IMG/VR virus record: IMGVR_UViG_2534682157_000015
Reading direction: 5' to 3' (one strand)
From: a virus
Taxonomy: Duplodnaviria > Heunggongvirae > Uroviricota > Caudoviricetes
DNA: 38,068 bases
In this document: positions 1 to 37,334 of the stretch, one piece after another
How positions within the stretch are numbered: position 1 is the first letter of the stretch
Layout: each line of letters begins with the position of its first letter
Notes under the pieces: model-generated
Database searches by the model: none
What the model was told of the DNA's origin: nothing
What the model saw: only the letters and a program-made list of their open reading frames with translations
Program-made: the position numbers and the translations under genes

Positions 1-1053
1 TTACGGGGTAATGCCAACCGCTGCCGCCACTTTGTCGCCACTTGGCAGCGTTGCCAGAGGATTGAAACGGAGCGCCGTTTCCAGATGATCCGGTGCCAGA
101 TGTGCGTAACGCATAGTCATTTTTATATCGTGGTGTCCGAGAATTTTTTGTAAGGCCAGAATGTTTCCACCCGACATCATGAAGTGCGCCGCAAACGTAT
201 GGCGCAGAACGTGTGTGAGTTGACCGCGAGGGAGCACGATAGACGTTTTTTCCATCACGGATAAAAATTGAAAATAGCAGTCTGTGAAGAAATTGAACCC
301 ATCAAGCGCCATGATCTCTTCGTAAAGCTCTTTACTGATAGGGATGCTTCTGTTTTTCTTCCCCTTCGTTCTGACAAAGGTAATTCGGTATTTGGTCACC
401 TGTGAGCGGGTAAGATTTACGGCTTCACGCCAGCGTGCGCCTGTGCTTAAGCATATCTTAACTACCAGTGCCAGAATTGGGTCCTGACGTTTGCAATCAG
501 CCAGCAATTCAACAATCTGCTCATGGGTAAGCCATGCTATCTCTTTTTCTGCGATGGTGAATTTTCGCATGTTCTCCAGTGGGTTCGGATACGACCATTC
601 GCCCAGACGGGATAGTTCGCTAAAAACACTACTTAGATAGCTTTGCTCCAGGTTAATGGTGACCGGGCTTGCTCCTTTCTTCCATTTCTCGCTGAAGTAG
701 ATCTCGCCTGTCAGGCGTTTATCTCGATAGTGGGCAAACATTTTAGAGGTGAGATCGGTTGCAAGAGGATTGCCTAGGGCGTCAACCATCAGCAGCAATT
801 TGTCATAGACATGCTGTCCAGCAGTCAGAGATTTACCATGTAGTTTGAACCATAGCTCAACCACGTCTTTCAGGGTTCGACGATCCACTGATTCGCCCAG
901 CCAGGGCTTTGATTCGGTTTCTTCCATCGTGTGACGCTCAAAAGCCAGAGCTTCGCCTTTGGTGGCGAATTGTTTACGCACACGACGCCCACTTCGTCCG
1001 GCGGGGTAACATTCGCAAAGCCATTTCCCTGTGGTGAGTTTTCGTACTGCCAT
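1..1053 (-). CDS. int: Tyrosine integrase (P2 Int-like), 350 aa
   Basis: Translation starts MAVRKL (P2 Int-like N-terminus) with GGAGG-like SD upstream; catalytic-box-like segments LSTGARWREA, HVLRHTFAAH, MRYAHLAP; ORF-track start at 1209 is likely an upstream over-extension. Confidence 0.9.
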   Translation of the reverse strand: MAVRKLTTGKWLCECYPAGRSGRRVRKQFATKGEALAFERHTMEETESKPWLGESVDRRTLKDVVELWFKLHGKSLTAGQHVYDKLLLMVDALGNPLATDLTSKMFAHYRDKRLTGEIYFSEKWKKGASPVTINLEQSYLSSVFSELSRLGEWSYPNPLENMRKFTIAEKEIAWLTHEQIVELLADCKRQDPILALVVKICLSTGARWREAVNLTRSQVTKYRITFVRTKGKKNRSIPISKELYEEIMALDGFNFFTDCYFQFLSVMEKTSIVLPRGQLTHVLRHTFAAHFMMSGGNILALQKILGHHDIKMTMRYAHLAPDHLETALRFNPLATLPSGDKVAAAVGITP

Positions 1054-1241
1054 AAAAAATGCCCTCCAGTAGAGAGCATTTTTACTGTATGTATAACCAG
1101 TATCAATGTATGAAATCCTACGACCATACATCTCACTGAAGCCATAATGAAGTTGGCTATTCTTTTTGCTATGTGAGCATGTAACTTTTGCGGTTAACCT
1201 GCGGCTCATTTTTATTTTAGACGCAGATATAAAAGCAAAAG

Positions 1242-4232: not shown

Positions 4233-5086
4233 GCACCATCCTGAAATGGGCGGGAAATAAAACGGCCATTATGGCAGAACTGAAAAAATACCTTCCTGCT
4301 GGCCCGCGACTGGTTGAACCTTTCGCGGGTTCCTGTGCAGTGATGATGGAGACGGATTACCCCAGCTATCTGGTTGCGGATATTAATCCTGATTTAATCA
4401 ACCTCTATAAAAAGGTTGCCGCTGATTGTGAATCGTTTATATCTCGCGCCAGAGTTTTATTTGAGATCGCAAACAGGGAGGTGGCTTATTACAACATAAG
4501 GCAGGAGTTTAATTACTCAACTGAAATTACTGATTTCATGAAAGCGGTATATTTCCTGTATCTCAATCGTCACGGTTACCGTGGTTTATGTCGCTATAAC
4601 AAGAGCGGGCATTTCAACATTCCCTACGGTAATTATAAAAATCCGTATTTCCCTGAAAAAGAAATTCGCGCATTTGCAGAAAAGGCCCAGCGAGCAACGT
4701 TTATCTGCGCCAGCTTTGATGAAACGCTGGCGATGTTGAAGGCGGGGGATGTGGTGTATTGCGATCCGCCGTATGACGGTACGTTTTCCGGCTATCACAC
4801 TGACGGCTTCACTGAAGATGACCAGTATCACCTGGCATCTGTTCTTGAACATCGGTCATCAGAAGGACATCCGGTCATTGTTTCTAACAGTGACACATCC
4901 CTGATCCGTTCGCTGTATCGCAATTTTACTCACCACTACATCAAGGCAAAACGCAGCATCGGTGTGGCAGCTGGCGAGGGTAAATCAGCAACAGAAATCA
5001 TTGCTGTTTCCGGGCCGCGCTGCTGGGTGGGATTTGATTATTCGCGTGGCGTGGATAGTTCTGCCGTGTACGGAGTACGTGCATGA
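4229..5086 (+). CDS. dam: DNA adenine methyltransferase (Dam family), 285 aa
   Basis: N-terminal [11 protein letters not shown]-binding motif and DPPY catalytic motif; start overlaps previous stop (ATGA). Confidence 0.9.
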
Positions 5087-7497
5087 GTCATGCCGATATG
5101 AACAACTGCTGCGGCTTTAACGAAGCTGCCGCATCGTTCTCATGGAACAGCCCGAAAAAGGCCATTAACCCTTATCTGGACCCGGCGGAAGTTGCGCCGG
5201 TTTCTGCGCTTTCAAACCTGATCACTCTGTACGCTACCGATAACGAGCAGGAACAACTGCGCCGCGAGGCACTGAGTGATCAGGTCTGGGAGCGTTATTT
5301 CTTTAATGAATCCCGTGATCCTGTCCAACGCGAAATGGAGCAGGATAAGCTCATTAGCCGGGCAAAGATGGCGCATGAGCAGCAGCGTTTTAATCCAGAC
5401 ATGGTCATTCTGGCGGACGTCAACGCCCAGCCTTCCCATATCAGCAAGCCGCTGATGCAACGTATTGAATATTTCAGCAGCCTGGGCAGGCCAAAGGCTT
5501 ATTCCCGCTATTTGCGTGAGACGATTAAGCCATGTCTGGAACGACTGGAGCATGTACGCGACAGCCAGCTATCTGCATCTTTTCGTTTTATGGCAAGCCA
5601 TGAAGGGCTGGACGGCCTGCTGATCCTGCCTGAAATGAGTCAGGATCAGGTGAAACGCCTGTCTACTCTTGTCGCTGCGCATATGAGTATGTGTCTTGAT
5701 GCCGCTTGTGGTGATTTGTACGCCTCCGATGATGTTAAGCCAGAAGAAATCCGCAAGACATGGGAAAAGGTGGCAGCAGAAACCCTGCGACTGGATGTCA
5801 TACCGCCTGCGTTTGAGCAACTCCGCCGGAAAAGAAACCGCCGCAAACCTGTGCCTTATGAACTCATTCCGGGTTCGCTGGCGCGTATGCTGTGCGCCGA
5901 CTGGTGGTATCGGAAATTATGGAAGATGCGTTGCGAATGGCGGGAAGAGCAGTTGCGTGCTGTCTGCCTGGTCAGCAAAAAAGCATCTCCCTATGTCAGC
6001 TATGAAGCCGTGATGCATAAACGTGAGCAGCGCCGTAAGTCGCTGGAGTTTTTCCGTTCTCATGAACTGGTGAACGAAGACGGCGACACGCTGAACATGG
6101 AGGATGTGGTAAACGCCAGCAGCAGCAACCCGGCGCATCGCCGCAACGAGATGATGGCCTGTGTTAAAGGCCTGGAGCTTATCGCGGAAATGCGTGGTGA
6201 CTGCGCCGTTTTCTACACCATCACCTGTCCGTCACGTTTCCATTCCACGCTAAATAACGGCAGGCCAAACCCGACCTGGACCAACGCGACAGTAAGACAA
6301 AGCAGCGATTATCTGGTCGGCATGTTTGCTGCATTTCGTAAGGCTATGCACAAAGCCGGGTTGCGCTGGTATGGCGTGCGGGTGGCTGAGCCGCATCATG
6401 ACGGCACAGTTCACTGGCACCTGTTGTGTTTCATGCGCAAAAAAGACCGCCGTGCCATCACTGCATTACTGCGTAAGTTTGCCATCCGTGAAGACCGCGA
6501 GGAGCTGGGCAATAACACTGGGCCGCGCTTTAAGTCTGAGTTGATTAACCCGCGCAAAGGAACGCCGACAAGCTACATCGCGAAATATATCAGTAAGAAC
6601 ATTGACGGTCGTGGTCTGGCTGGCGAGATCAGCAAGGAAACGGGTAAATCTCTGCGTGATAACGCTGAATACGTGAATGCGTGGGCGTCTCTGCATCGTG
6701 TTCAGCAATTCCGCTTCTTTGGTATTCCGGGGCGTCAGGCTTACCGTGAACTTCGCTTGCTGGCTGGTCAGGCGGCAAGGCAACAGGGTGACAAAAAAGC
6801 AGGTGCGCCGGTACTGGATAACCCGCGTCTTGATGCCATTCTGGCTGCTGCTGATGCTGGTTGTTTTGCCACCTACATCATGAAGCAGGGCGGCGTACTG
6901 GTTCCCCGTAAATATCACCTCATCAGAACCGCTTATGAAATCAACAAAGAGCCGACCGCCTATGGCGATCACGGCATTCGTATTTATGGCATCTGGTCAC
7001 CCATTGCAGAGGGCAAGATCTGCACTCATGCAGTGAAGTGGAAAATGGTTCGTAAAGCCGTTGACGTTCAGGAGGCGGCAGCCGACCAGGGCGCTTGCGC
7101 CCCTTGGACTCGTGGCAATAACTGTCCCCTTGCTGAAAATTTGAACCAACAGGAGAAAGATAAATCAGCAGATGGGGACCCCAGAACGGACATTACCAGC
7201 ATGGATGACAAGGAGTTGCACGATTTCCTGCACAGTATGAGCAAAAAAGAGCGCCGAGAACTGGCAGCAAGGTTACGCCTGGTTAAACCGATACGGCGTA
7301 AAGACTACCAACAGCGAATTACAGACCATCAGCGACTGCAGCTCGTCTATGAGCTGAAGTCCAGAGGATTTGATGGTAGCGAGAAAGAGGTCGATTTACT
7401 CCTTCGCGGCGGCAGTATTCCGTCAGGAGCAGGCCTGCGTATCTTCTATCGGAACCAGCGTTTGCGGGAAGATGATAAGTGGCGGAACCTGTATTAA
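5083..7497 (+). CDS. A: Replication initiation endonuclease A (rolling-circle HUH Rep, P2 gpA-like), 804 aa
   Basis: HUH-like HWHLL motif and paired tyrosines YIAKYISK; size and position as P2/186 A. Confidence 0.9.
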
Positions 7498-8176: not shown

Positions 8177-8860
8177 CTATGATTGAAGAGCAATCTTTCT
8201 CAACGTATCAAATACAATTTTTGTAAAATTATTTTCATTTTTAACGTCAATGTAAGCAAGAGCGTTATTAGTAATTTTAAGTTTACCAGAATACTCTAAT
8301 GAATTAACGGAGCAAACAAGTTTGTCAATTCTTATTTTCTTCCCCTCTAATTCTTCTTTATAATATTTTCTAAGGTCACTGCTGCCAATTATTTGCATTT
8401 TAGCTGTAGCGTAATCAGCGACTCTAACTCTAGAAATATCCAGCTGTGTTAGATTTATATTCACATTTGAAGATATTTCGTTGAGCCAGTCCATCGGATT
8501 TATATCAATCTCTTCTAGGCTAACGCCTAAGCCAAGATTTCTGACTAAGGCCTGTGAAAACGGTTTTAAAGTTCGCGGAGGGTTAGTAAGTTGCATTATA
8601 GGAAGAGTATCTAAAGATACACTGAAATTAGTAGTGCGGTATTCGACTCTTTCTACGATAGTTTCGCTTCCGTCAAAATTAGAAACTTGATCGTGATAAA
8701 TAATACGCTCAACAAAGCGTCCATGTGCAGAATCATGACGTATTTTATCAAAAATAAACCCTTTCCCCTTATCCTCGGTAAAAGAATCAAGAGAAAGACG
8801 TTTAACAGCTTTTTCAAATTCAAGCCGTATGTTTAATTTGAGCCACTTAACCTTCTTCAT
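8177..8860 (-). CDS. Hypothetical protein, third gene of accessory operon (227 aa)
   Basis: Start lies 14 nt inside the 3' end of the previous gene; no family recognised. Confidence 0.6.
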   Translation of the reverse strand: MKKVKWLKLNIRLEFEKAVKRLSLDSFTEDKGKGFIFDKIRHDSAHGRFVERIIYHDQVSNFDGSETIVERVEYRTTNFSVSLDTLPIMQLTNPPRTLKPFSQALVRNLGLGVSLEEIDINPMDWLNEISSNVNINLTQLDISRVRVADYATAKMQIIGSSDLRKYYKEELEGKKIRIDKLVCSVNSLEYSGKLKITNNALAYIDVKNENNFTKIVFDTLRKIALQS

Positions 8861-9926
8861 GTTCGTTTACCTCTGGTCCTATTATTATATTATAGGCATT
8901 TTCAGCGGCTGACTCAATTAATTCACTAATATGTCTTTTCTCTTGTGCCGTTGCCGCACGAATTGTCACATTGAATCCGTCTTCTTTTTGATTATTTATC
9001 CCTTTAATTTGATAGGCAAAGTCACAGCAATTTTCAGAGTCTTTGAAAAATGCTTCAACGTTAATTCTGTCACCAACTCCACTTGTCGGTTTTGAAGACC
9101 ATGCGATACGGCCTATATAATAACCTTTCTCGTGTAGTTGAGAAAATATAGGCGAACTATTAACACCTTCACCATTCAAAACAGCTTTCTTGACGAATCC
9201 GGTATCGATTGTTTCTTCTTTGTCTTCATCTTCACTTGCGTCAATATTGCGATTTAATTCTACTTTCGTTACATCATCAGTCTCATAACCATGTAGTCCA
9301 TTCATTAACTCTTGAAAGAACTGGCTTCGCAATGTAGGGTCAGTGATTGCCATTAAAGAAATTTCAAAACGTTCAATAGGCTCAGATTTGATTTTAGACA
9401 GCTCGTTTTGCAGACCCTCAATAACTTTTTTTGCCTCAGGATTCTGTGGCATACGTACTTCAACCTTGTCAACACCAGGGCGAAGTTCTATTATGACATT
9501 CCGTTTATCTATTTGACGCAGAGCGGTTTTAGATAAGTCTATTTCTTCATAGTTATATTCTACTGTCAGAGAACCATCTTTTTTCGCTACGATATTCAAG
9601 CTTTGCCCTTTACTGGGTGAACATGTTTTTTTCAATGCTTCAGCTGCGCTCTTTAATTCGGCCTGATTTGTTGTGGTCTGAAAACTCACACTGGTAATGC
9701 TTTCTCTTGGATCATATGTTTTGACCATCTTTTTTATATGCTCTAATTCATTAAAACCATGGGGGAGTTTTGATATTTCCTCGATAAGTATTTCCTTGTC
9801 GAGTTCTGGTGATAAAAAAACACCTCTATTTAGCAATAATTCATGTAATTTTGCAGGGGTTATTCTTTTATGATGCAAAGCATCATAAATATTCTTGTCA
9901 GTCGCAAAGTATAATTTTTTAGCCAT
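8847..9926 (-). CDS. Hypothetical protein, second gene of accessory operon (359 aa)
   Basis: Start overlaps upstream stop; acidic patch SEDEDKEETID; no family recognised. Confidence 0.6.
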   Translation of the reverse strand: MAKKLYFATDKNIYDALHHKRITPAKLHELLLNRGVFLSPELDKEILIEEISKLPHGFNELEHIKKMVKTYDPRESITSVSFQTTTNQAELKSAAEALKKTCSPSKGQSLNIVAKKDGSLTVEYNYEEIDLSKTALRQIDKRNVIIELRPGVDKVEVRMPQNPEAKKVIEGLQNELSKIKSEPIERFEISLMAITDPTLRSQFFQELMNGLHGYETDDVTKVELNRNIDASEDEDKEETIDTGFVKKAVLNGEGVNSSPIFSQLHEKGYYIGRIAWSSKPTSGVGDRINVEAFFKDSENCCDFAYQIKGINNQKEDGFNVTIRAATAQEKRHISELIESAAENAYNIIIGPEVNEHEEG

Positions 9927-20637: not shown

Positions 20638-21076
20638 ACTGCAGAAGGTGGACGACTGGCTTAGTGCCTTACTGGCGAATCTGGAACCAGTCGCAAGAAG
20701 CCGCATGATGCGCCAGCTGGCGCAGGAACTGCGCCGGACACAGCAGCAGAATATCAGGATGCAGCGCAATCCAGATGGCAGCAGTTATGAACCGCGCAAG
20801 GTTACGGCGCGCAGTAAAAAAGGCCGCATCAAACGTCAGATGTTTGCAAAGCTGCGCACCACCAAATACCTGAAAACCGCCGCCAGCGCCGACTCTGCCA
20901 GCGTACAGTTTGAAAGTAAGGTGCAGCGCATTGCCCGCGTTCACCATTATGGCCTGCGCGATCGCGTCAGCCGCAAAGGACCGGAAGTGCGTTACGCAGA
21001 GCGTCGTTTGTTGGGTCTTAATGGTGAGTCTTACGTTCTAACTCTTGATATATTGAATAGATTCCTTCTGTCTTGA
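20630..21076 (+). CDS. S: Tail completion protein (P2 gpS-like), 148 aa; last codons run into AT-rich inserted DNA
   Basis: GTG start overlapping R stop; composition changes abruptly near 21030. Confidence 0.75.
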   Translation: MAELQKVDDWLSALLANLEPVARSRMMRQLAQELRRTQQQNIRMQRNPDGSSYEPRKVTARSKKGRIKRQMFAKLRTTKYLKTAASADSASVQFESKVQRIARVHHYGLRDRVSRKGPEVRYAERRLLGLNGESYVLTLDILNRFLLS

Positions 21077-21434
21077 ATTCACCATATGCCCAATGAATTG
21101 CATTTTTTTGTTCAGTCAGAATATATTTCCTAACTTTTTTAGAATAGTGAATGGTCAGTATAAAACCCAAAGAAATCCATAATAGAATAAATATGGTTGT
21201 TGGGGCAAAGGAATAGATAAAGAATTTGTCTTTAACGAAATTCTTGACTTCTTCATCAATGTAAGCATTCCCTTCATCAGTGGTTAGTAGTTTACAAAGA
21301 ATTTCTTTATGCTCGATAGTTAATGATTTGTACTTCTCTGTACTGGCAGAGGATGACTCTTCGCAATCATCCTTTGATATTTCCCAATCAGGAGTGGTTA
21401 ATATTGTAGCTGCAGTCGCCAGTTTTTTTGACAT
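21018..21434 (-). CDS. Hypothetical protein with one predicted transmembrane helix (138 aa from ATG 21434; track ORF extends to TTG 21536)
   Basis: AT-rich ORF between S and V; hydrophobic segment FFIYSFAPTTIFILLWISLGFILTI. Confidence 0.45.
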   Translation of the reverse strand: MSKKLATAATILTTPDWEISKDDCEESSSASTEKYKSLTIEHKEILCKLLTTDEGNAYIDEEVKNFVKDKFFIYSFAPTTIFILLWISLGFILTIHYSKKVRKYILTEQKNAIHWAYGEFKTEGIYSIYQELERKTHH

Positions 21435-21598
21435 ATAAAATGATTCACCGGATTTTATCCAATAAAGCAATGTGCTATTTGGTGGGGTTCTAATGGCTTG
21501 GATGAAAACTGGACCAAAAATATAAATTGCACACAAAAAAAGAAGTGAAAAGAGAACCGTGATTGATTTTTCAGCCCATGTGATAGTAGGCAGCCTTT

Positions 21599-21823
21599 TT
21601 AATGATATTCGTATAAGAAAAAATTTAATATAAACGCAGGTATTCCTGATTTTTTCAAAATTACATCATGAGATTTTCTATATTTGAATAGTGCTCTTAT
21701 AACTATCGTCACCAAAGTTATAACAGCTCCAATAATGGAAATCCATGCGGCAAGTGCCGCTGCCGGGGTGTTTAAAAATTCAGCATTAAATATATTAGAA
21801 CTTATTGGATTCATAACACTCAT
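21599..21823 (-). CDS. Small hypothetical membrane protein, 74 aa
   Basis: GGTGG SD 5 nt before ATG; hydrophobic segment AALAAWISIIGAVITLVTIVI; AT-rich. Confidence 0.45.
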   Translation of the reverse strand: MSVMNPISSNIFNAEFLNTPAAALAAWISIIGAVITLVTIVIRALFKYRKSHDVILKKSGIPAFILNFFLYEYH

Positions 21824-21862
21824 TTATCCACCTATTGGTTGTTTTTTATCCTTTTATCAATT

Positions 21863-21880
21863 TGTACCATCGATACCACA
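21863..21880 (+). promoter_or_regulatory. Late-promoter activator dyad TGT-N12-ACA upstream of V, with TATAAA -10-like element downstream
   Basis: TGTaccatcgataccACA about 47 nt upstream of V ATG. Confidence 0.5.
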
Positions 21881-21926
21881 ATTTGCAAGAAGTTATAAAC
21901 AAGTTTTCAGCTGTCATCATATATCT

Positions 21927-22505
21927 ATGAACGCACAACTAACCGAAATCATGCGCCTTATCACCAATCTGATCCGCATAGGTGTAGTCACCGAAGTGGA
22001 CCGGGAAAACTGGCTTTGTCGGGTGAAAACGGGCGACCTTGAAACCAACTGGATTAACTGGCTGACGCTGCGCGCGGGTAATGCCCGCACATGGTGGCGA
22101 CCATCGGAAGGTGAGCAGGTGGTACTGCTGAGTCTGGGCGGCAATCTGGAAACAGCCTTTGCTTTGCCCGCCATCTATTCTAATCAGTTTGCACCGCCGT
22201 CGCAGTCGGTGGACGCCTGTGTGACAGAACATCCTGATGGTGGCTGGTTTGAATACGAACCCACTACCGGGCGCTGGTATGTCAGGGGCATCAAATCCAT
22301 GGTCATTGAGGCTGCCGACAACATCACCCTGAAAACCAGTGAGTTTGTGCTGGAGGCTGACCGCACGCGTATTAACAGCGAAGTAGTGATCAATGGTGGC
22401 GTTACCCAGGGCGGCGGTGCAATGAGTTCTAACGGAATTGTGGTTGATGCACATCAGCATACTGGCGTCCTGAAAGGCGGCGACACAACCGGAGGCCCGG
22501 TATGA
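21927..22505 (+). CDS. V: Baseplate spike protein (P2 gpV-like), 192 aa
   Basis: ATG at 21927 in frame with track ORF 21684-22505; position and size as P2 V. Confidence 0.85.
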   Translation: MNAQLTEIMRLITNLIRIGVVTEVDRENWLCRVKTGDLETNWINWLTLRAGNARTWWRPSEGEQVVLLSLGGNLETAFALPAIYSNQFAPPSQSVDACVTEHPDGGWFEYEPTTGRWYVRGIKSMVIEAADNITLKTSEFVLEADRTRINSEVVINGGVTQGGGAMSSNGIVVDAHQHTGVLKGGDTTGGPV

Positions 22506-22861
22506 CGCTTTATAGCGGGATGAACAATACCAGCGGCAAAGTCATTACTGATATTGACCATCTGCGCCAGTCGGTGCGGGACATTCTGCTGACGCCGCAG
22601 GGTAGCCGCATTGCCCGTCGGGAATATGGTTCCCTGCTGTCGGCACTGATAGATCAGCCACAAAATCCGGCGTTACGCCTGCAGGTCATGTCGGCAGTGT
22701 ATGTGGCGCTGAGTCGCTGGGAGCCACGGCTGACGCTGGATTCCATCACCATCAACAGCCATTTTGACGGTTCAATGGTGGTGGAGCTGAGCGGGCGGCG
22801 TAATAACGGTGTGCCTGTTTCCCTTTCCGTATCAACAGGAGCAGAGAATGGCAGTGATTGA
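22502..22861 (+). CDS. W: Baseplate wedge protein (P2 gpW-like), 119 aa
   Basis: Size and position as P2 W. Confidence 0.85.
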   Translation: MTLYSGMNNTSGKVITDIDHLRQSVRDILLTPQGSRIARREYGSLLSALIDQPQNPALRLQVMSAVYVALSRWEPRLTLDSITINSHFDGSMVVELSGRRNNGVPVSLSVSTGAENGSD

Positions 22862-23756
22862 CCTTTCGCAGTTGCCTGCGCCGCAGATTGTGGATGTGCC
22901 GGACTTTGAGACGCTGCTTGCCGAACGCAAGGCCGAATTTGTGGCGCTTCATCCGAAAGATGAGCAGGAAGCAGTGATCCGCACGCTGGAACTGGAATCT
23001 GAACCCGTTACCAAATTGTTGCAGGAGAACGCTTATCGTGAGTTGCTTCTGCGCCAGCGCATTAACGAAGCCGCGCAGGCGGTGATGGTGGCTTACGCGA
23101 TGGGCGGCGATCTTGACCAGCTCGCTGCTAACTACAACGTGAAACGCCTGACGGTGACACCTGCTGATGATGACGCTGTACCGCCCGTTGCGGCTGTGAT
23201 GGAAAGTGATGAAGCGTTACGCCTGCGTGTGCCTGCAGCCTTTGAAGGGCTTTCTGTTGCGGGGCCAACTGCCGCTTATGAGTTTCATGCACGAAGCGCC
23301 GACGGTCGGGTGGCGGATGCCAGTGCAACCAGTCCGGCACCTGCAGAGGTGGTACTGACTGTCCTTAGCCGCGAAGGCGACGGAACAGCAGAAAAAGACT
23401 TGCTGGATGTGGTGGAGAACGCCCTGAACAGTGAGAACGTCCGCCCGGTGGCTGACCGTCTGACGGTTCGCAGCGCAGAAATCATCCCGTACCGCGTGGA
23501 AGCCACCATTTTTCTTTATCCGGGACCGGAAGCAGAGCCGGTAATGGCAGCGGCAAAAGCCAGCCTGCAGAAGTACATCGCCAGTCAGACGCGGCTTGGT
23601 CGGGATATTCGCCGTAGTGCCATTTTTGCCGCGCTGCATGTTGAGGGGGTTCAACGTGTGGAGCTGACTTCACCGCTGGCTGATGTGGTCCTGAACAAAA
23701 CACAGGCCGCCTCATGTACGCAGTGGAGCGTAACCAACGGAGGAACGGATGAATAG
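22848..23756 (+). CDS. J: Baseplate protein (P2 gpJ-like), 302 aa
   Basis: ATG at 22848 with AGGAG SD; size as P2 J. Confidence 0.9.
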   Translation: MAVIDLSQLPAPQIVDVPDFETLLAERKAEFVALHPKDEQEAVIRTLELESEPVTKLLQENAYRELLLRQRINEAAQAVMVAYAMGGDLDQLAANYNVKRLTVTPADDDAVPPVAAVMESDEALRLRVPAAFEGLSVAGPTAAYEFHARSADGRVADASATSPAPAEVVLTVLSREGDGTAEKDLLDVVENALNSENVRPVADRLTVRSAEIIPYRVEATIFLYPGPEAEPVMAAAKASLQKYIASQTRLGRDIRRSAIFAALHVEGVQRVELTSPLADVVLNKTQAASCTQWSVTNGGTDE

Positions 23757-24354
23757 TCTGCTGCCACCAGGTTCAACGCTACTGGAGCGCCGACTGGCGC
23801 AGACCTGTAGCGGGATTTCTGATCTGCAGGTGCCGCTGCGTGACTTGTGGAATCCGGCAACCTGTCCGGTCAGTTTCCTGCCTTATCTCGCTTGGGCGTT
23901 CTCTGTGGATCGCTGGGACGAGGGCTGGACTGAAAGCGTCAAACGTCAGGTGGTGAAGGATGCTTTTTATATTCATCAGAATAAAGGAACCACCAGTGCC
24001 GTGCGGCGGGTGGTGGAACCGTTCGGATTCCTGATCCGCATTATTGAGTGGTGGCAGACCGGCGAAACACCGGGCACGTTTCGCCTGGATATCGGCGTGC
24101 AGGATCAGGGCATCACTGAAGATACCTATCTGGAACTTGAGCGACTGATAAGCGATGCCAAACCATGTAGCCGTCACATGATCGGCATGTCCATCAATCT
24201 GCAGACCAGCGGCCCGCATTGGGTGGGAGCCGCCAGCTATCTTGGCGAAGAAATCACGATCTATCCGTATATCAACGAAACAATTATTTCCGGCGGCACC
24301 GCGCATGAAGGCGGGGCGGTCCATGTTATTGACACAATGAGAGTGAATCCATGA
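23749..24354 (+). CDS. I: Baseplate protein (P2 gpI-like), 201 aa
   Basis: Overlaps J stop and H start; position as P2 I. Confidence 0.85.
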   Translation: MNSLLPPGSTLLERRLAQTCSGISDLQVPLRDLWNPATCPVSFLPYLAWAFSVDRWDEGWTESVKRQVVKDAFYIHQNKGTTSAVRRVVEPFGFLIRIIEWWQTGETPGTFRLDIGVQDQGITEDTYLELERLISDAKPCSRHMIGMSINLQTSGPHWVGAASYLGEEITIYPYINETIISGGTAHEGGAVHVIDTMRVNP

Positions 24355-25733
24355 GCACAAAATTTTATACCCTGCTGACGGATATTGGCGCGGCGAAACT
24401 TGCCAGCGCCGCCGCGCTCGGTGTGCCTTTAAAAATTACCCATATGGCGGTCGGCGATGGCGGCGGAACATTACCAACGCCGGACGCAAAGCAGACAGCA
24501 CTGGTAAATGAGAAACGCCGGGCTGCGCTGAATATGCTCTATATCGACCCGCAGAACAGCAGCCAGATTATTGCTGAACAGGTGATCCCTGAAAACGAGG
24601 GCGGTTGGTGGATACGTGAAGTGGGCTTGTTTGATGAGTCCGGGGCATTGATTGCCGTGGGTAACTGCCCGGAAAGCTATAAGCCGCAACTGGCTGAAGG
24701 CAGTGGGCGTACCCAGACCGTGCGCATGGTGCTGATTACCAGCAGTACGGGCAATATCATCCTGAAAATCGACCCTGCTGTAGTGCTGGCAACCCGCAAG
24801 TATGTGGATGACAAGGCACTGGAGCTGAAGGTGTACGTGGATGACCTGATAGCAAAACATCTTGCCGCACTGGACCTGCATTCACAGTATGCACCCAAAG
24901 AAAGTCCGACATTTACCGGAACCCCCAAAGCGCCAACGCCAGCGGCGGGGAATAATACCACTCAGCTTGCGACCACCGCATTTGTTCAGGCGGCACTGAC
25001 GGCCCTGATTAATGGTGCGCCAGCCACGCTGAAAGAAATAGCCGCAGCCATTAACAATGACCCGAAATTCAGTACCACCATTAACAATGCGCTGGCACTG
25101 AAAGCGCCGCTGTCGAGTCCGGCACTCACCGGAACGCCAACAGCCCCCACGGCGGCGCAGTCGGTCAACAATACACAGATTGCCACTACGGCTTTTGTGA
25201 AATCGGCGATTGCGGCAATGGTGGGTTCTGCACCTGCGGCACTGGATACACTGAACGAACTGGCGGCGGCACTGGGGAATGATCCGAACTTTGCCACGAC
25301 AATGCTTAATGCGCTGGCAGGTAAACAACCGCTGGACAATACGCTGACTAATTTGAGTGGAAAGGATGTAGCTGGTCTTCTCACATACCTTGGTTTGGGA
25401 GAAGCCAGATATGTCATTCAGCGAGGAGCTAATGTCAATGGTGCATGGATACGCTGGTCAGATGGTGCAATAGAAGTATTTGGAACTGGTGGTTCCAATG
25501 ATAATGGGCTGGCTAAAGTCGTTTATCCAATTGCACTACCTAAGCTTTCACGTTTTATCAGCATAGCGGAAAGAATAAGAACAGATTACGAGGCCACACC
25601 TAATAACGTTCACGTTTCAATGATCGTGGATGACCAGGTCAGTAATACAGGTTTTTATGTCCGCTGCCAGATGTACGACGGAAGACCATCAACAAGTGCT
25701 TTTTCCTGGAGAGTTTATTGTGCGCCTGTTTAA
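24351..25733 (+). CDS. H: Tail fibre protein (P2 gpH-like) in its current orientation; C-terminal part lies inside the invertible segment
   Basis: Ala/Thr-rich repeated segments (TQLATTAFV, TQIATTAFV); recombination site inside the gene at 25378-25403. Confidence 0.85.
   Translation: MSTKFYTLLTDIGAAKLASAAALGVPLKITHMAVGDGGGTLPTPDAKQTALVNEKRRAALNMLYIDPQNSSQIIAEQVIPENEGGWWIREVGLFDESGALIAVGNCPESYKPQLAEGSGRTQTVRMVLITSSTGNIILKIDPAVVLATRKYVDDKALELKVYVDDLIAKHLAALDLHSQYAPKESPTFTGTPKAPTPAAGNNTTQLATTAFVQAALTALINGAPATLKEIAAAINNDPKFSTTINNALALKAPLSSPALTGTPTAPTAAQSVNNTQIATTAFVKSAIAAMVGSAPAALDTLNELAAALGNDPNFATTMLNALAGKQPLDNTLTNLSGKDVAGLLTYLGLGEARYVIQRGANVNGAWIRWSDGAIEVFGTGGSNDNGLAKVVYPIALPKLSRFISIAERIRTDYEATPNNVHVSMIVDDQVSNTGFYVRCQMYDGRPSTSAFSWRVYCAPV
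25378..25403. repeat. Left inversion crossover site (hix/gix/cix-like, 26 bp), inside tail-fibre gene
   Basis: Reverse complement TTCTCCCAAACCAAGGTATGTGAGAA matches right site in 22 of 26 positions. Confidence 0.6.
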
Positions 25734-25917
25734 TCCTGTTACTTTGACTGAAGTAATCCCCGGTCTTCATGACGTGACCGGGGCTGTGGAATTACCAGAA
25801 GATAACTGGTTTTTTACTGCATCTGAAATCCCTGAAGGAATGGAAATATCTGTTAACGAGAAGGGCGAACCCATTCTGATTGAGATTAAACCATCTCAGG
25901 TGGAACTGGCCAGATAA
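25729..25917 (+). CDS. Putative tail-fibre assembly chaperone (active-orientation cassette), about 63 aa
   Basis: GTG overlapping H stop; position immediately after fibre gene; short, assignment by position only. Confidence 0.35.
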   Translation, partial: FNPVTLTEVIPGLHDVTGAVELPEDNWFFTASEIPEGMEISVNEKGEPILIEIKPSQVELAR

Positions 25918-26152
25918 CCCCCGGCGCGGTGCTGGTATCTGCTTCCATCACCGCGTCGATATTACCAACATCATATTCAGTCATTTCCGGTTCCGGTGGT
26001 GCTATAAACTCTCCGTCAGAATAGAACCAACCGACGCCTGCATCTATATGATCAACATTTATAATTTCGCAATTAGAGAATAAATCACCATCTCCATCCC
26101 AGATAATAATATTTTTCACCACGCCATGTTCAATCAGAGCAAAATTACTCAT
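25886..26152 (-). CDS. Putative tail-fibre assembly chaperone of the alternative (inverted) cassette, 88 aa
   Basis: Start overlaps stop of alternative fibre C-terminal ORF; assignment by position only. Confidence 0.35.
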   Translation of the reverse strand: MSNFALIEHGVVKNIIIWDGDGDLFSNCEIINVDHIDAGVGWFYSDGEFIAPPEPEMTEYDVGNIDAVMEADTSTAPGVIWPVPPEMV

Positions 26153-26885
26153 CAGGCATACTCCTCAACAATAACTATTCCCGGGGCACCGTCACCTCCC
26201 GATTGAGCCTCACTTCCAGCAGGTGCGCAGGCTCCGCCTCCGCCAGCACCAAAGCCCTCAGCTTTACCACCACCACGTCCTCTGAATGATGAAGAACTTG
26301 CACCACCTATACCGCCTGAACCTAATGGTGTATCCCCCCCGGTACCACCTGCTACAGCTTTAACAGAGATAACCATTGCTCCTGGTGTTTTTGCACTACA
26401 GCGAAATGCTCTTAGTACAGTGCCGGACGATGTCGGACTGGCACCCCATGAAATACCCTGAATATATGATGTGTTTGCAGATGCTCCCCCCGCGCCACCG
26501 CCTGTACCACCAGGTGCAGTTATCATGGAACCGAAATAAGTTGTGCCACCTTCACTACCTGAATTTCTTCCGGCTCCCCCCCTTTACCTGCAGCACCGAT
26601 AATAACGTTGACTTCGAAATCATTATCAACCTCGAAAAATGCTTCAATAAATGCGCCGCTCAATCCAGCTCCGGCTGTTGCCTGCTGATTTTCTGTTGTT
26701 TCAGGAACCCCACCGCCGCCGCCGCCACCACCAGAGGCAATGACCCTTATCTTTTTTGTCCCTGGTGTTGGGATATATTTTCCAGAACTTTTAAAAATAT
26801 TCGTGTTTAACAAACGACCAGAGAATCTGGCTTCTCCCAAACCAACGTTTATGAAAATGCAGAGATAACGGCTAACTGGCATCAT
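26152..26885 (-). pseudogene. Alternative tail-fibre C-terminal cassette (promoterless, fused to H constant part after inversion), split by a 1-nt frameshift at a G7 run (26576-26582 on plus strand)
   Basis: Begins GLGEARF mirroring GLGEARY at the H crossover; Gly-rich fibre-like sequence; ORFs 26523-26885 and 26152-26526 join if the run is read as G8. Confidence 0.6.
26832..26857. repeat. Right inversion crossover site (hix/gix/cix-like) TTCTCCCAAACCAACGTTTATGAAAA
   Basis: Inverted copy of the left site; lies just upstream of the invertase gene. Confidence 0.6.
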
Positions 26886-26912: not shown

Positions 26913-27479
26913 ATGCTTATTGGCTATGTACGCGTGTCAACAAATGACCAGAACACCGATTTGCAACGTAATGCACTGAACTGCGCGGGATGTGAGCGGA
27001 TTTTTGAGGACAAAATCAGTGGCACTAAGTCCAACAGACCGGGGCTGAAAAAACTGCTCAGGACACTATCGGCAGGAGACACGCTGGTTGTCTGGAAGCT
27101 GGACAGGTTGGGGCGCAGTATGCGGCATCTTGTTACGTTGATAGAAGAGTTGCGCCAGCGAGGTGTGAATTTCCGAAGCCTGACTGACAGTATTGATACC
27201 AGTACCCCAATGGGCCGTTTCTTTTTTCATGTCATGGGTGCCCTGGCTGAAATGGAACGCGAACTGATAGTTGAACGTACCAGGGCGGGGCTTGCTGCAG
27301 CTCGCGCCAAAGGCAGAGTAGGTGGACGCCGTCCTAAGTTGACTACCGAACAGTGGGCACAGATTGGACGCTTACTCGAGGCCGGAGAATCAAGACAGCG
27401 TATTGCACTGATTTTTGATGTGGGTGTTTCCACAATTTATAGAAAATTTCCGGCAAATAAGAGTAATGAATCCCCCTGA
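26913..27479 (+). CDS. Serine DNA invertase (Hin/Gin/Cin/Pin family), 188 aa
   Basis: N-terminus MLIGYVRVSTNDQNTDLQRNAL and GDTLVVWKLDRLGRS closely resemble Gin/Hin as recalled; ATG at 26913. Confidence 0.9.
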   Translation: MLIGYVRVSTNDQNTDLQRNALNCAGCERIFEDKISGTKSNRPGLKKLLRTLSAGDTLVVWKLDRLGRSMRHLVTLIEELRQRGVNFRSLTDSIDTSTPMGRFFFHVMGALAEMERELIVERTRAGLAAARAKGRVGGRRPKLTTEQWAQIGRLLEAGESRQRIALIFDVGVSTIYRKFPANKSNESP

Positions 27480-36974: not shown

Positions 36975-37334
36975 TTGGCGGGGGCAATCTGCTGTTTTGT
37001 CCTCTTCATTGTGGTGTGCCTTTTTCTGGCGACGCACATGAAAGGCGCTTTTCGGGCTGCCGGGCATCCTGAAATCGGCTTGCTATTTTTCATTCTTCCT
37101 GGAGCAGTCGCCAGCTTCTTTTCACAGCGTAGAGAAGTCCTGAAACCTCTGTTTGGCGCAATGCTGGCGGCACCCTGTTCGATGCTCATTATGCGGCTGT
37201 TTTTTTCACCGACGCGCTCATTCTGGCAAGAGCTGGCATGGTTACTAAGCGCGGTGTTCTGGTGTGCGCTGGGGGCACTGTGTTTCTTATTTATCAGTAG
37301 TTTGTTTAAACCACAGCACAGAAAAAATCAGTAA
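36975..37334 (+). CDS. ybjM: Inner membrane protein YbjM (start uncertain)
   Basis: Hydrophobic 119-aa ORF between ybjL and grxA; track start is TTG. Confidence 0.6.
   Translation: MAGAICCFVLFIVVCLFLATHMKGAFRAAGHPEIGLLFFILPGAVASFFSQRREVLKPLFGAMLAAPCSMLIMRLFFSPTRSFWQELAWLLSAVFWCALGALCFLFISSLFKPQHRKNQ

Follow-up and report, generated by a model that had tools for sequence, protein, structure and literature searches.

Does gene H of this prophage end in a single tail-fibre tip, or in either of two that are exchanged by inversion of the DNA that encodes them? The question is raised by a segment of the window (the whole 38,068-nucleotide stretch of viral DNA that was analysed, IMG/VR record IMGVR_UViG_2534682157_000015) in which two convergent modules, one comprising a fibre C-terminus (tip A) and a 65-aa ORF on the plus strand and the other an alternative C-terminus (tip B) and an 88-aa ORF on the minus strand, lie between inverted repeats and next to a recombinase gene. 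Tail-fibre inversion of the Din type has been textbook material since Mu, P1 and e14, and a first-pass annotation of the window had likened the locus to the G segment of Mu, a comparison supported by the enzyme, the sites, the in-frame fusions and the flipped loci described here. Our analyses indicate that the tail-fibre operon of this P2/186-like E. coli prophage very probably carries an inversion switch of the Pin/Gin type (Din family).

Recombination sites, invertase and candidate enhancer

The arms of the inverted repeat, at 25378-25410 and 26825-26857, are 33 nt in length with 88% complementarity, and are 1414 nt apart. They hold a 21-nt exact core, ATCTGGCTTCTCCCAAACCAA, which occurs twice in the whole window, once on each strand, and this pairing is non-random, as shuffles gave an expectation of only 0.01 matches by chance. 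Within the arms, a repeat search, comparison with pix and the breakpoints described below delimited two sites of 26 bp. The left site, which is pix-like, lies within H at 25378-25403 with its central TT at 25390-25391, and the right site lies at 26832-26857 with its central AA at 26844-26845. The right site has full identity with the pix site beside pinE in e14; what the left site shares with its e14 counterpart is the inner half and the central AA. Read as its reverse complement, the left site is TTCTCCCAAACC-AA-GGTATGTGAGAA and the right site is TTCTCCCAAACC-AA-CGTTTATGAAAA; that is, the central dinucleotide AA is common to both in a same-sense reading, and the AAACC core of the sites is also present in gix. 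The locus therefore has the pair of inverted, imperfectly palindromic 26-bp sites with one shared central dinucleotide by which the Din family is recognised. The 14-mer TTCTCCCAAACCAA is found at the two sites and nowhere else in the window. A multi-site shufflon was also considered and was ruled out, since only two sites were found in the window, even when 2-3 mismatches were allowed.

The gene at 26913-27479 (plus strand), which is outside the invertible segment, encodes a Din-family serine DNA invertase of 188 aa. The protein has matches to the Pfam domains Resolvase (E 2.8e-53) and HTH_7 (E 1.4e-15), its residues 1-184 align to the Gin structures 3UJ3 and 4M6F (E 3.9e-92 for 3UJ3), and its identity to PinE is 85% and to Mu Gin 73%; searches of NCBIfam with the invertase produced sub-threshold matches only. 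Ser9 is held in the motif GYVRVSTNDQ, and the protein has the makeup of a Din-family enzyme: a length of about 190 aa, an N-terminal catalytic domain with the Ser nucleophile and a C-terminal HTH. Comparison with Gin 3UJ3 showed that His106 and Met114 are both in the wild-type state; as Fis-independent Gin mutations map to these positions, this is an indirect indication of the dependence on Fis and negatively supercoiled DNA that marks Din-family systems. The first-pass annotation had thus been right to place a Hin/Gin-type serine invertase here, as the two domains, the match to the Gin structures and Ser9 all attest, and its two inverted 26-bp sites were confirmed by the exact 21-bp arms and by the restriction of the 14-mer to two places. 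Its description of these sites as similar to hix, gix and cix is in line with the e14 pix identity of the right site and the gix-like AAACC core.

In the Hin/hix switch, the Fis enhancer sits within the invertase gene (PMC3798978). A candidate Fis-binding recombinational enhancer was located by homology in a comparable position here, at 26935-26997 in the 5' end of the invertase gene, where the region aligns with the 5' coding sequence of gin and pinE. It contains two candidate 15-bp Fis cores, TGTCAACAAATGACC (26935-26949) and GCGCGGGATGTGAGC (26983-26997), whose centres are separated by 48 bp, the distance between the two Fis sites of Din-family enhancers. Between the candidate cores are ATTTG and TAATG, where the Hin enhancer has ATTTA and TAATG between its Fis sites. 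Synonymous variation in the invertase gene was 0.23-0.30 in codons 1-20 versus 0.47 in codons 34-180. A scan of the site and first 300 bp with the strict Fis consensus GNNYAWWWWWTRNNC (at least 9 of the 11 specified positions) found no match in the window, and for gin and pinE it found non-conserved matches only; because the scan of the window was empty, the enhancer is positioned by homology only. From these comparisons we infer that the switch would depend on Fis and its enhancer.

The fibre gene and its two tips

Gene H (24351-25733, 460 aa) encloses the left site and is flanked on both sides by other genes of a late tail operon that is complete (V-W-J-I-H ... FI-FII). Its constant N-terminal part (24351-25389, plus strand, approximately 347 aa) was defined by Pfam, PHROG and RefSeq comparisons as a tail-collar N-domain followed by shaft repeats. 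Residues 1-150 correspond to Pfam Phage_tail_fib (E 1.7e-63), PHROG tail-fibre families also match, and in RefSeq relatives the constant part carries the annotation "phage tail protein". One conserved shaft repeat of H is shorter than in relatives, by 9 nt lost in frame at 25024. The residues GLGEAR are spelled across the sites in both reading frames and, since the sites fall in the L-GLGE codons of the fibre, shaft and tip are joined in frame in either orientation, such that H(1-347) runs on through GLGEAR into one tip or the other.

Tip A, the fibre C-terminus in use in the window orientation (25390-25733, plus strand), is a small all-beta domain of approximately 113 aa that was delimited from its ORF and homologs. 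These homologs are from enterobacteria only, and many of them are present as silent-orientation ORFs. AF2 modelled tip A poorly (pLDDT 58), and the best fold match of the model was a weak one, to the fibre tip of phage AP22 gp53 (4MTM; E 0.06, TM 0.40), a possible resemblance that we treat as a hint only. PDB sequence searches with both full-length fibres matched the shaft alone and no part of the tips, and neither the fibre and its tips nor the small ORFs fell into an NCBIfam family. Coupled to tip A is the 65-aa ORF (25720-25917, plus strand), which has a GTG start and a 14-nt overlap with the H stop, and is represented in relatives by RefSeq WP_001236016.1. It matches phrog_5400, a family of unknown function (E 5e-23), and, weakly, phrog_188, tail-fibre assembly (E 0.004); a Mu-like prophage has it together with tip A, at 77% identity. 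When the 65-aa ORF was compared by BLASTP with Mu U and with a Caudo_TAP protein, no similarity was detected. It is presumed to be the assembly partner of tip A.

Tip B, the silent alternative C-terminus (26152-26845, minus strand), is glycine-rich and approximately 231 aa long if intact, as judged from Pfam and the annotation of relatives. The intact form matches Pfam Gly_rich_2 (E 7.7e-8), and its AF2 model (pLDDT 89) had its best fold matches in the fibre of cyanophage Pam3 (7YPX) and the tail tip of Bxb1 (9D93). In the window, a C8/G8 run at 26575 has lost 1 nt, and the resulting frameshift splits tip B into ORFs at 26152-26526 and 26523-26885; the ATG at 26885 is outside the invertible segment and hence is no real start. 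All six close relatives examined have tip B intact. When the segment was inverted in silico, the glycine-rich tip came to follow the constant part of H in the same frame; the frameshifted form of the window would then give a truncated fibre of 453 aa, and in flipped relatives the fused H' is annotated intact at 580 aa. The 88-aa ORF coupled to tip B (25886-26152, minus strand), whose ATG overlaps the tip B stop codon, appears to encode a tail-fibre assembly protein of "mini" size. Pfam gave no hit for it, but its C-terminal sequence, DTSTAPGVIWPVPPE, corresponds to the conserved end of Mu U/U', e14 TfaP/TfaE and the Cartapus assembly proteins, and this assembly-protein motif, DTSxAPxxxWP, is present in the 88-aa ORF and absent from the 65-aa ORF. 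In another prophage backbone, the 88-aa ORF accompanies the glycine-rich tip at 92% identity.

Much of the gene content initially ascribed to the segment was therefore found. The GLGEAR crossover was there in both frames, as was, on the plus strand, a fibre C-terminus with its small ORF. On the minus strand, the glycine-rich tip and its companion ORF were both present, but the tip is split in the window. The label "chaperone" given to the small ORFs stood in part, in that the 88-aa ORF has the assembly motif, but Pfam Caudo_TAP matched neither ORF; we nonetheless infer a chaperone role for both. The two tips show no relationship in sequence or predicted fold, and different receptors are therefore likely, i.e., the two orientations would likely confer different receptor specificities.

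Inversion among near-identical loci

The loci available for comparison were near-identical relatives of the window (97-99.6% identity), and the orientation of each was counted from full-length, single-piece matches to the window or to its in-silico inverted sequence. In 23 complete E. coli records there were 24 such loci, 15 of which matched the inverted form and nine the window orientation. Three pairs of 9139-bp loci (UC4315 and UC4316, LR4 and LR1, and the two ends of the strain 214-4 record) were 100% identical save for the exact reverse complement of their 1415-bp middle. The breakpoints in all three pairs lie inside the site arms and can be placed only to the shared 21-bp block. UC4315 and UC4316 are each a laboratory "mutant of UC4224". 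The two "copies" in the 214-4 record are one locus, within an untrimmed terminal overlap of approximately 35 kb, and therefore both orientations were present in one culture; the overlap was probably left untrimmed because its two ends lay in opposite orientations. We also asked whether the prophage is tandemly duplicated in 214-4 and discarded this idea, as the record ends within the prophage and starts in ybjO/potI; the host ybjO/potI at its start is frameshifted and recurs intact at 5.10 Mb. Precise inversion between the sites, a further mark of the Din family, is thus a feature of these near-identical loci, and inversion at exactly these sites is real in them. In addition, each tip with its small ORF was found in Mu-like and other myovirus-type invertible segments with the same site type, and this site type bounds every related cassette across three phage backbones.

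Proposed mechanism, alternatives and known relatives

The locus is most probably an ordinary, active Din-family switch, and presumably one of the host-range type. Dimers of the invertase would bind the two 26-bp pix-like sites, one within H and one immediately before the invertase gene, with host Fis most likely bound at the enhancer in that gene's own 5' end. The enzyme would cut both sites at the central AA/TT dinucleotide, half of the complex would turn through 180 degrees, and religation would leave approximately 1.45 kb inverted. The window orientation would provide tip A (113 aa) and its 65-aa partner, and the flipped orientation the 231-aa glycine-rich tip and the 88-aa mini assembly protein. 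As the late promoter would read only the module joined to H and the other would be silent, a population of lysogens would be mixed, and induction would give virions bearing one or other receptor-binding tip.

Might these inversions arise without the invertase, the short inverted repeats serving as substrates for general homologous recombination by RecA? The arms do share 21 bp of perfect identity, and the breakpoint is resolvable only within that block, but in E. coli efficient recombination by RecA needs a stretch of identity about this long, if not longer. The arms are also canonical Din sites, one of them pix itself, adjoining an intact Pin-like invertase; sites of the same type surround every related cassette in the three phage backbones; and flips distinguish laboratory derivatives of a single strain and occurred in one culture, a faster pace than would be expected of such short repeats. 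Together these points make the RecA explanation highly improbable. Less improbable, yet still unlikely, is that the switch is a relic as far as host range is concerned, in which the DNA may flip but the single-base deletions in the window are real. In that event, the flipped state would make the 453-aa truncated fibre, and the loss of sheath and scaffold would mean that no virions are formed. The deletions at 26575 (tip B), 27945 (sheath) and 16210 (scaffold) do break three phage genes relative to all close relatives, and the conserved shaft repeat of H has lost 9 nt. However, each of the four 1-nt indels removes a base from a homopolymer run, the fourth being at 36977 in the host gene ybjM; this is a signature of homopolymer-prone sequencing rather than of selection-free decay and makes sequencing error likely. 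Against a relic, too, are the few substitutions relative to strain 214-4 (99.2-99.6% identity) and the intact C8 run of all six relatives examined. The frameshift in tip B is, then, probably a homopolymer sequencing error.

A different proposition is that the switch mainly serves the lysogen, with a fibre-derived protein from one orientation altering the cell surface or blocking the adsorption of other phages. The precedent is e14, in which PinQ-driven inversion of the P segment is reported to create StfE2, a protein that blocks phage T2 adsorption (PMC12529663), and the site and invertase here are of the e14 Pin type; the candidate defence cluster borne by the same prophage would also fit. 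However, e14 itself is cryptic and has no functional tail, and H, as one of the late genes of a tail operon that is complete, should not be expressed in a lysogen. A mainly lysogenic role seems very doubtful. There is a slim chance that the flip may change the phenotype of the lysogen in addition to the host range of the virion, through an H-derived protein from one orientation that masks a receptor or otherwise blocks superinfecting phages. If so, pix/GLGE would be a shared splice junction that moves tip modules among P2-like, Mu-like and other prophages, and tip-module exchange would benefit the host as well as the phage.

A Din-family host-range switch, the reading that we favour, has clear counterparts. 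As in the P segment of e14, a constant fibre part is followed by two convergent modules of tip and assembly genes and then the invertase, with the crossover in GLGE codons. However, e14 is a lambdoid remnant and the present backbone is that of a complete P2/186-like myovirus; the e14 tips are StfP/StfE rather than a tentatively gp53-like knob and a glycine-rich domain; and its Caudo_TAP proteins have 137 and 200 aa versus 65 and 88 aa for the assembly ORFs here. The G segment of Mu (S/U versus S'/U') has the same mechanism and logic, a related enzyme and core, and an invertase immediately outside, but is 3 kb compared with approximately 1.45 kb, has sites of the gix rather than pix type, and encodes tips and partner proteins to which those described here are unrelated. 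The invertible fibre loci of P2-like phages (the EPEC E2348/69 prophages, Escherichia phage Cartapus and Klebsiella phage KP12) share the backbone and the H-FI position, and the constant part of H and the invertase are 96% identical. Inversion phase variation has been shown experimentally in the P2-like prophages of EPEC E. coli (PMC4272514), in an example with three repeats giving four variants, whereas here there are two sites only. Cartapus differs in its two Caudo_TAP-type assembly genes and its other tips, with 54% of the query covered. The Salmonella Hin/hix system has the same enzyme family and 26-bp site architecture, but it flips a promoter and has Hin inside its own segment, unlike the coding swap and external invertase of this locus.

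The conceptual gain is small, as Din-type fibre inversion was already known, also in P2-like E. coli prophages. There are practical consequences, though. Annotation pipelines label such genes no further than "phage tail protein", "hypothetical" or "recombinase" and call spurious ORFs that start outside the segment, and the alternative fibre is therefore missed. The switch is also a source of assembly artefacts, as in the record of strain 214-4. The tip modules could serve in the engineering of phage or tailocin host range, and the two tips and their tiny partner ORFs would represent compact, portable receptor-binding modules that are found in at least three phage backbones.

Orientation of the segment among relatives

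The fibre segment, bounded by 26-bp sites at 25378-25403 (left, inside H) and 26832-26857 (right), was found in both orientations among complete E. coli records that are 97.2-99.6% identical to the window. The orientation of the window had a full-length, one-piece match in 9 of them, and the form flipped in silico had such a match in 15. The first-pass annotation had proposed a switch like the G segment of Mu, and the proposal was borne out by these counts and by three pairs of 9139-bp loci that are 100% identical except that the 1415 bp between the arms are exactly reverse-complemented. One pair is UC4315 and UC4316, both recorded as mutants of one parent, UC4224, which is in the flipped state; another is LR4 and LR1, from one chicken-farm study; and the last is two "copies" in the record of E. 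coli 214-4. That record starts in frameshifted ybjO/potI and ends inside the prophage, with intact ybjO/potI again at 5.10 Mb, and the two copies are therefore a ~35-kb untrimmed terminal overlap of one locus, which a single culture yielded in both orientations. Sequencing and PCR have shown phase variation by inversion in P2-like E. coli prophages (PMC4272514). Relatives as similar to the window as these provide strong evidence that its cassette would be active.

As a side observation, the RefSeq "complete" chromosome of 214-4 (NZ_CP025840.1) appears to keep this overlap of ~35 kb over the prophage, at positions 1-35071 versus 5103639-5138709 (our loci L001, L006 and L018-L021). The ends of the record contain many frameshifted genes, and the inversion difference between them probably stopped the overlap from being trimmed.

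Recombination sites, invertase and putative enhancer

Inversion by a serine invertase of the Hin/Gin family requires inverted sites with identical central dinucleotides. Both a pair of 26-bp inverted sites and an adjoining serine invertase had been claimed from the sequence, and both stood up. The inverted-repeat arms (25378-25410 and 26825-26857) are 33 nt long with 88% complementarity, and the perfect 21-nt core occurs once per strand and nowhere else in the window (0.01 expected by chance). Written in the same sense, the left and right sites are TTCTCCCAAACC-AA-GGTATGTGAGAA and TTCTCCCAAACC-AA-CGTTTATGAAAA; the right one is identical, base for base, to the site adjoining pinE in e14, the cryptic prophage of K-12, and an AAACC core is common to the window's sites and the gix sites of Mu. 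Since there are only two sites of this type in the window, the switch is a two-state one, and a shufflon was rejected on the same count.

Pfam identifies Resolvase and HTH_7 domains in the ORF at 26913-27479, which has the nucleophile Ser9 and whose residues 1-184 align to the Gin crystal structures 3UJ3 and 4M6F (E about 1e-91); its identity is 85% to PinE and 73% to Mu Gin. Positions 106 (His) and 114 (Met), where Fis-independent Gin mutations map, are wild type, which suggests that the enzyme may be normally regulated and enhancer-dependent. The first ~100 coding bases of the gene align with gin and pinE, and contain two candidate 15-bp Fis cores (26935-26949 and 26983-26997), 48 bp apart centre to centre. 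Din enhancers are well established to lie within the invertase gene, in its 5' part (PMC3798978), and the ATTTG and TAATG between the candidate cores resemble the ATTTA and TAATG between the Fis sites of Hin (PMC3798978). Across seven Din genes, synonymous variation was 0.23-0.30 in codons 1-20 versus 0.47 in codons 34-180. A strict Fis consensus scan of the site and first 300 bp gave no match in the window.

Alternative fibre tips and their partner ORFs

On the plus strand of the segment, tip A (the last 113 codons of H) is followed 3' by a 65-aa ORF that overlaps the H stop and has a GTG start with a good Shine-Dalgarno sequence. On the minus strand lies the silent glycine-rich tip (tip B, a Pfam Gly_rich_2 match), and the ATG of the next ORF, of 88 aa, overlaps the stop codon of that tip. 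Inversion in silico at the central dinucleotides joined H(1-347) to the glycine-rich tip in frame across LGLGEAR, and the 580-aa fusion is annotated as a tail protein in flipped relatives, confirming the earlier suggestion of alternative fusions that cross GLGEAR. The ATG at 26885, the start of the silent "ORF", is outside the segment and therefore an annotation artefact.

The AF2 model of the glycine-rich tip was confident (pLDDT 89, pTM 0.85), with best PDB matches to the cyanophage Pam3 fibre 7YPX (TM 0.61) and Bxb1 tail-tip proteins 9D93, and a weaker one to the ALK/LTK glycine-rich domain. The Pam3 and Bxb1 matches indicate that it is, as modelled, a genuine fibre-tip fold. The model of tip A was poor (pLDDT 58), and its sole suggestive match was the AP22 gp53 fibre tip. 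The small ORFs, both described at first as chaperones, are putative ones: the C-terminal end of the 88-aa ORF, DTSTAPGVIWPVPPE, is a motif common to Mu U/U', e14 TfaP/TfaE and Cartapus assembly proteins, but the motif was not found in the 65-aa ORF and neither ORF matched Caudo_TAP in the Pfam search.

Each tip was also found elsewhere with its own small ORF, tip A with the 65-aa ORF (77% identity) in a Mu-like prophage and the glycine-rich tip with an 87-aa ORF (92% identity) in another myovirus-type prophage, both in pix-type segments adjoining a Pin-like invertase of ~85% identity. This supports tip-plus-partner modules that would be exchanged through the conserved site. In these two prophage loci (L012, 4001-6493, Mu-like; L015, 4001-6677, the third myovirus-type prophage), the modules each face a different alternative cassette, a Collar or another tip plus a Caudo_TAP protein, and use the same TTCTCCCAAACCAA site as the window; this site therefore serves as a shared junction for exchanging modules. 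In the window, the 65-aa and 88-aa ORFs converge and share 32 nt at their 3' ends (25886-25917), read on opposite strands. The same overlap of 32 nt is retained in L012, where a canonical assembly gene lies opposite the 65-aa ORF, so that the module boundary falls within the conserved C-terminal motif encoded by the assembly gene on the other strand.

Prophage setting and state of the window's copy

The window holds a nearly complete E. coli prophage of the P2/186-like type (Peduoviridae). It opens with the integrase (1-1209, minus strand) and early genes of CI/CII/Fil type. Replication gene A (5083-7497) comes next, then the portal and terminase genes (12694-15503, minus strand), those for the head and lysis, and the tail operon V-W-J-I-H (21684-25733). 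Beyond the invertible feature are the genes for sheath, tube and tape measure, then D and ogr; from about 35.0 kb onwards the genes are those of the host (ybjL, ybjM and grxA). The related phages Cartapus, KP12 and 500465-1, from the phage collection, have an H constant part and invertase ~95-96% identical to those of the window, but differ in the cassettes between them.

Two variable regions were noted in passing. Three successive minus-strand ORFs (227, 359 and 333 aa; 8177-10927), between gene A and the portal gene, have full-length PADLOC matches to Hp3, Hp2 and Hp1 (E 5e-144 to 5e-245) and no domain in the Pfam search; they may form an anti-phage defence cluster. The neighbouring ORF at 11477-12559 has a weak Peptidase_M48 match. 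An AT-rich spot at 21018-21860, between a virion-morphogenesis gene and baseplate gene V, holds a minus-strand 172-aa ORF whose only match is to the C-terminal half of DUF6216. In relatives the spot is occupied by a complete DUF6216 gene or by a GmrSD restriction enzyme, making it a second cargo hotspot.

Relative to the closest complete genomes, 1-nt deletions break the capsid scaffold gene gpO (16210, A6 to A5), the silent tip B (26575, C8 to C7), the sheath gene (27945, A7 to A6) and the host gene ybjM (36977, G3 to G2). If real, they would make the prophage defective, and its flipped state would yield a truncated fibre of 453 aa. All four shorten a homopolymer and one of them lies in host DNA; sequencing error is therefore the likeliest cause, and the pattern points to an assembly prone to homopolymer errors rather than to decay. 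The H shaft also has a 9-nt in-frame deletion at 25024 (PATLDTLKEI to PATLKEI), between direct CACGCTG repeats; with it goes part of a conserved "APxxLDTLxE" shaft repeat, which every relative examined has intact.

Overall, the initial observation and its interpretation were essentially correct. The nearest known system is e14 Pin/pix, here set in a P2/186-like backbone with less common tip modules. The feature is ordinary in kind, a Din-family invertible tail-fibre switch that is demonstrably active in the window's nearest relatives.
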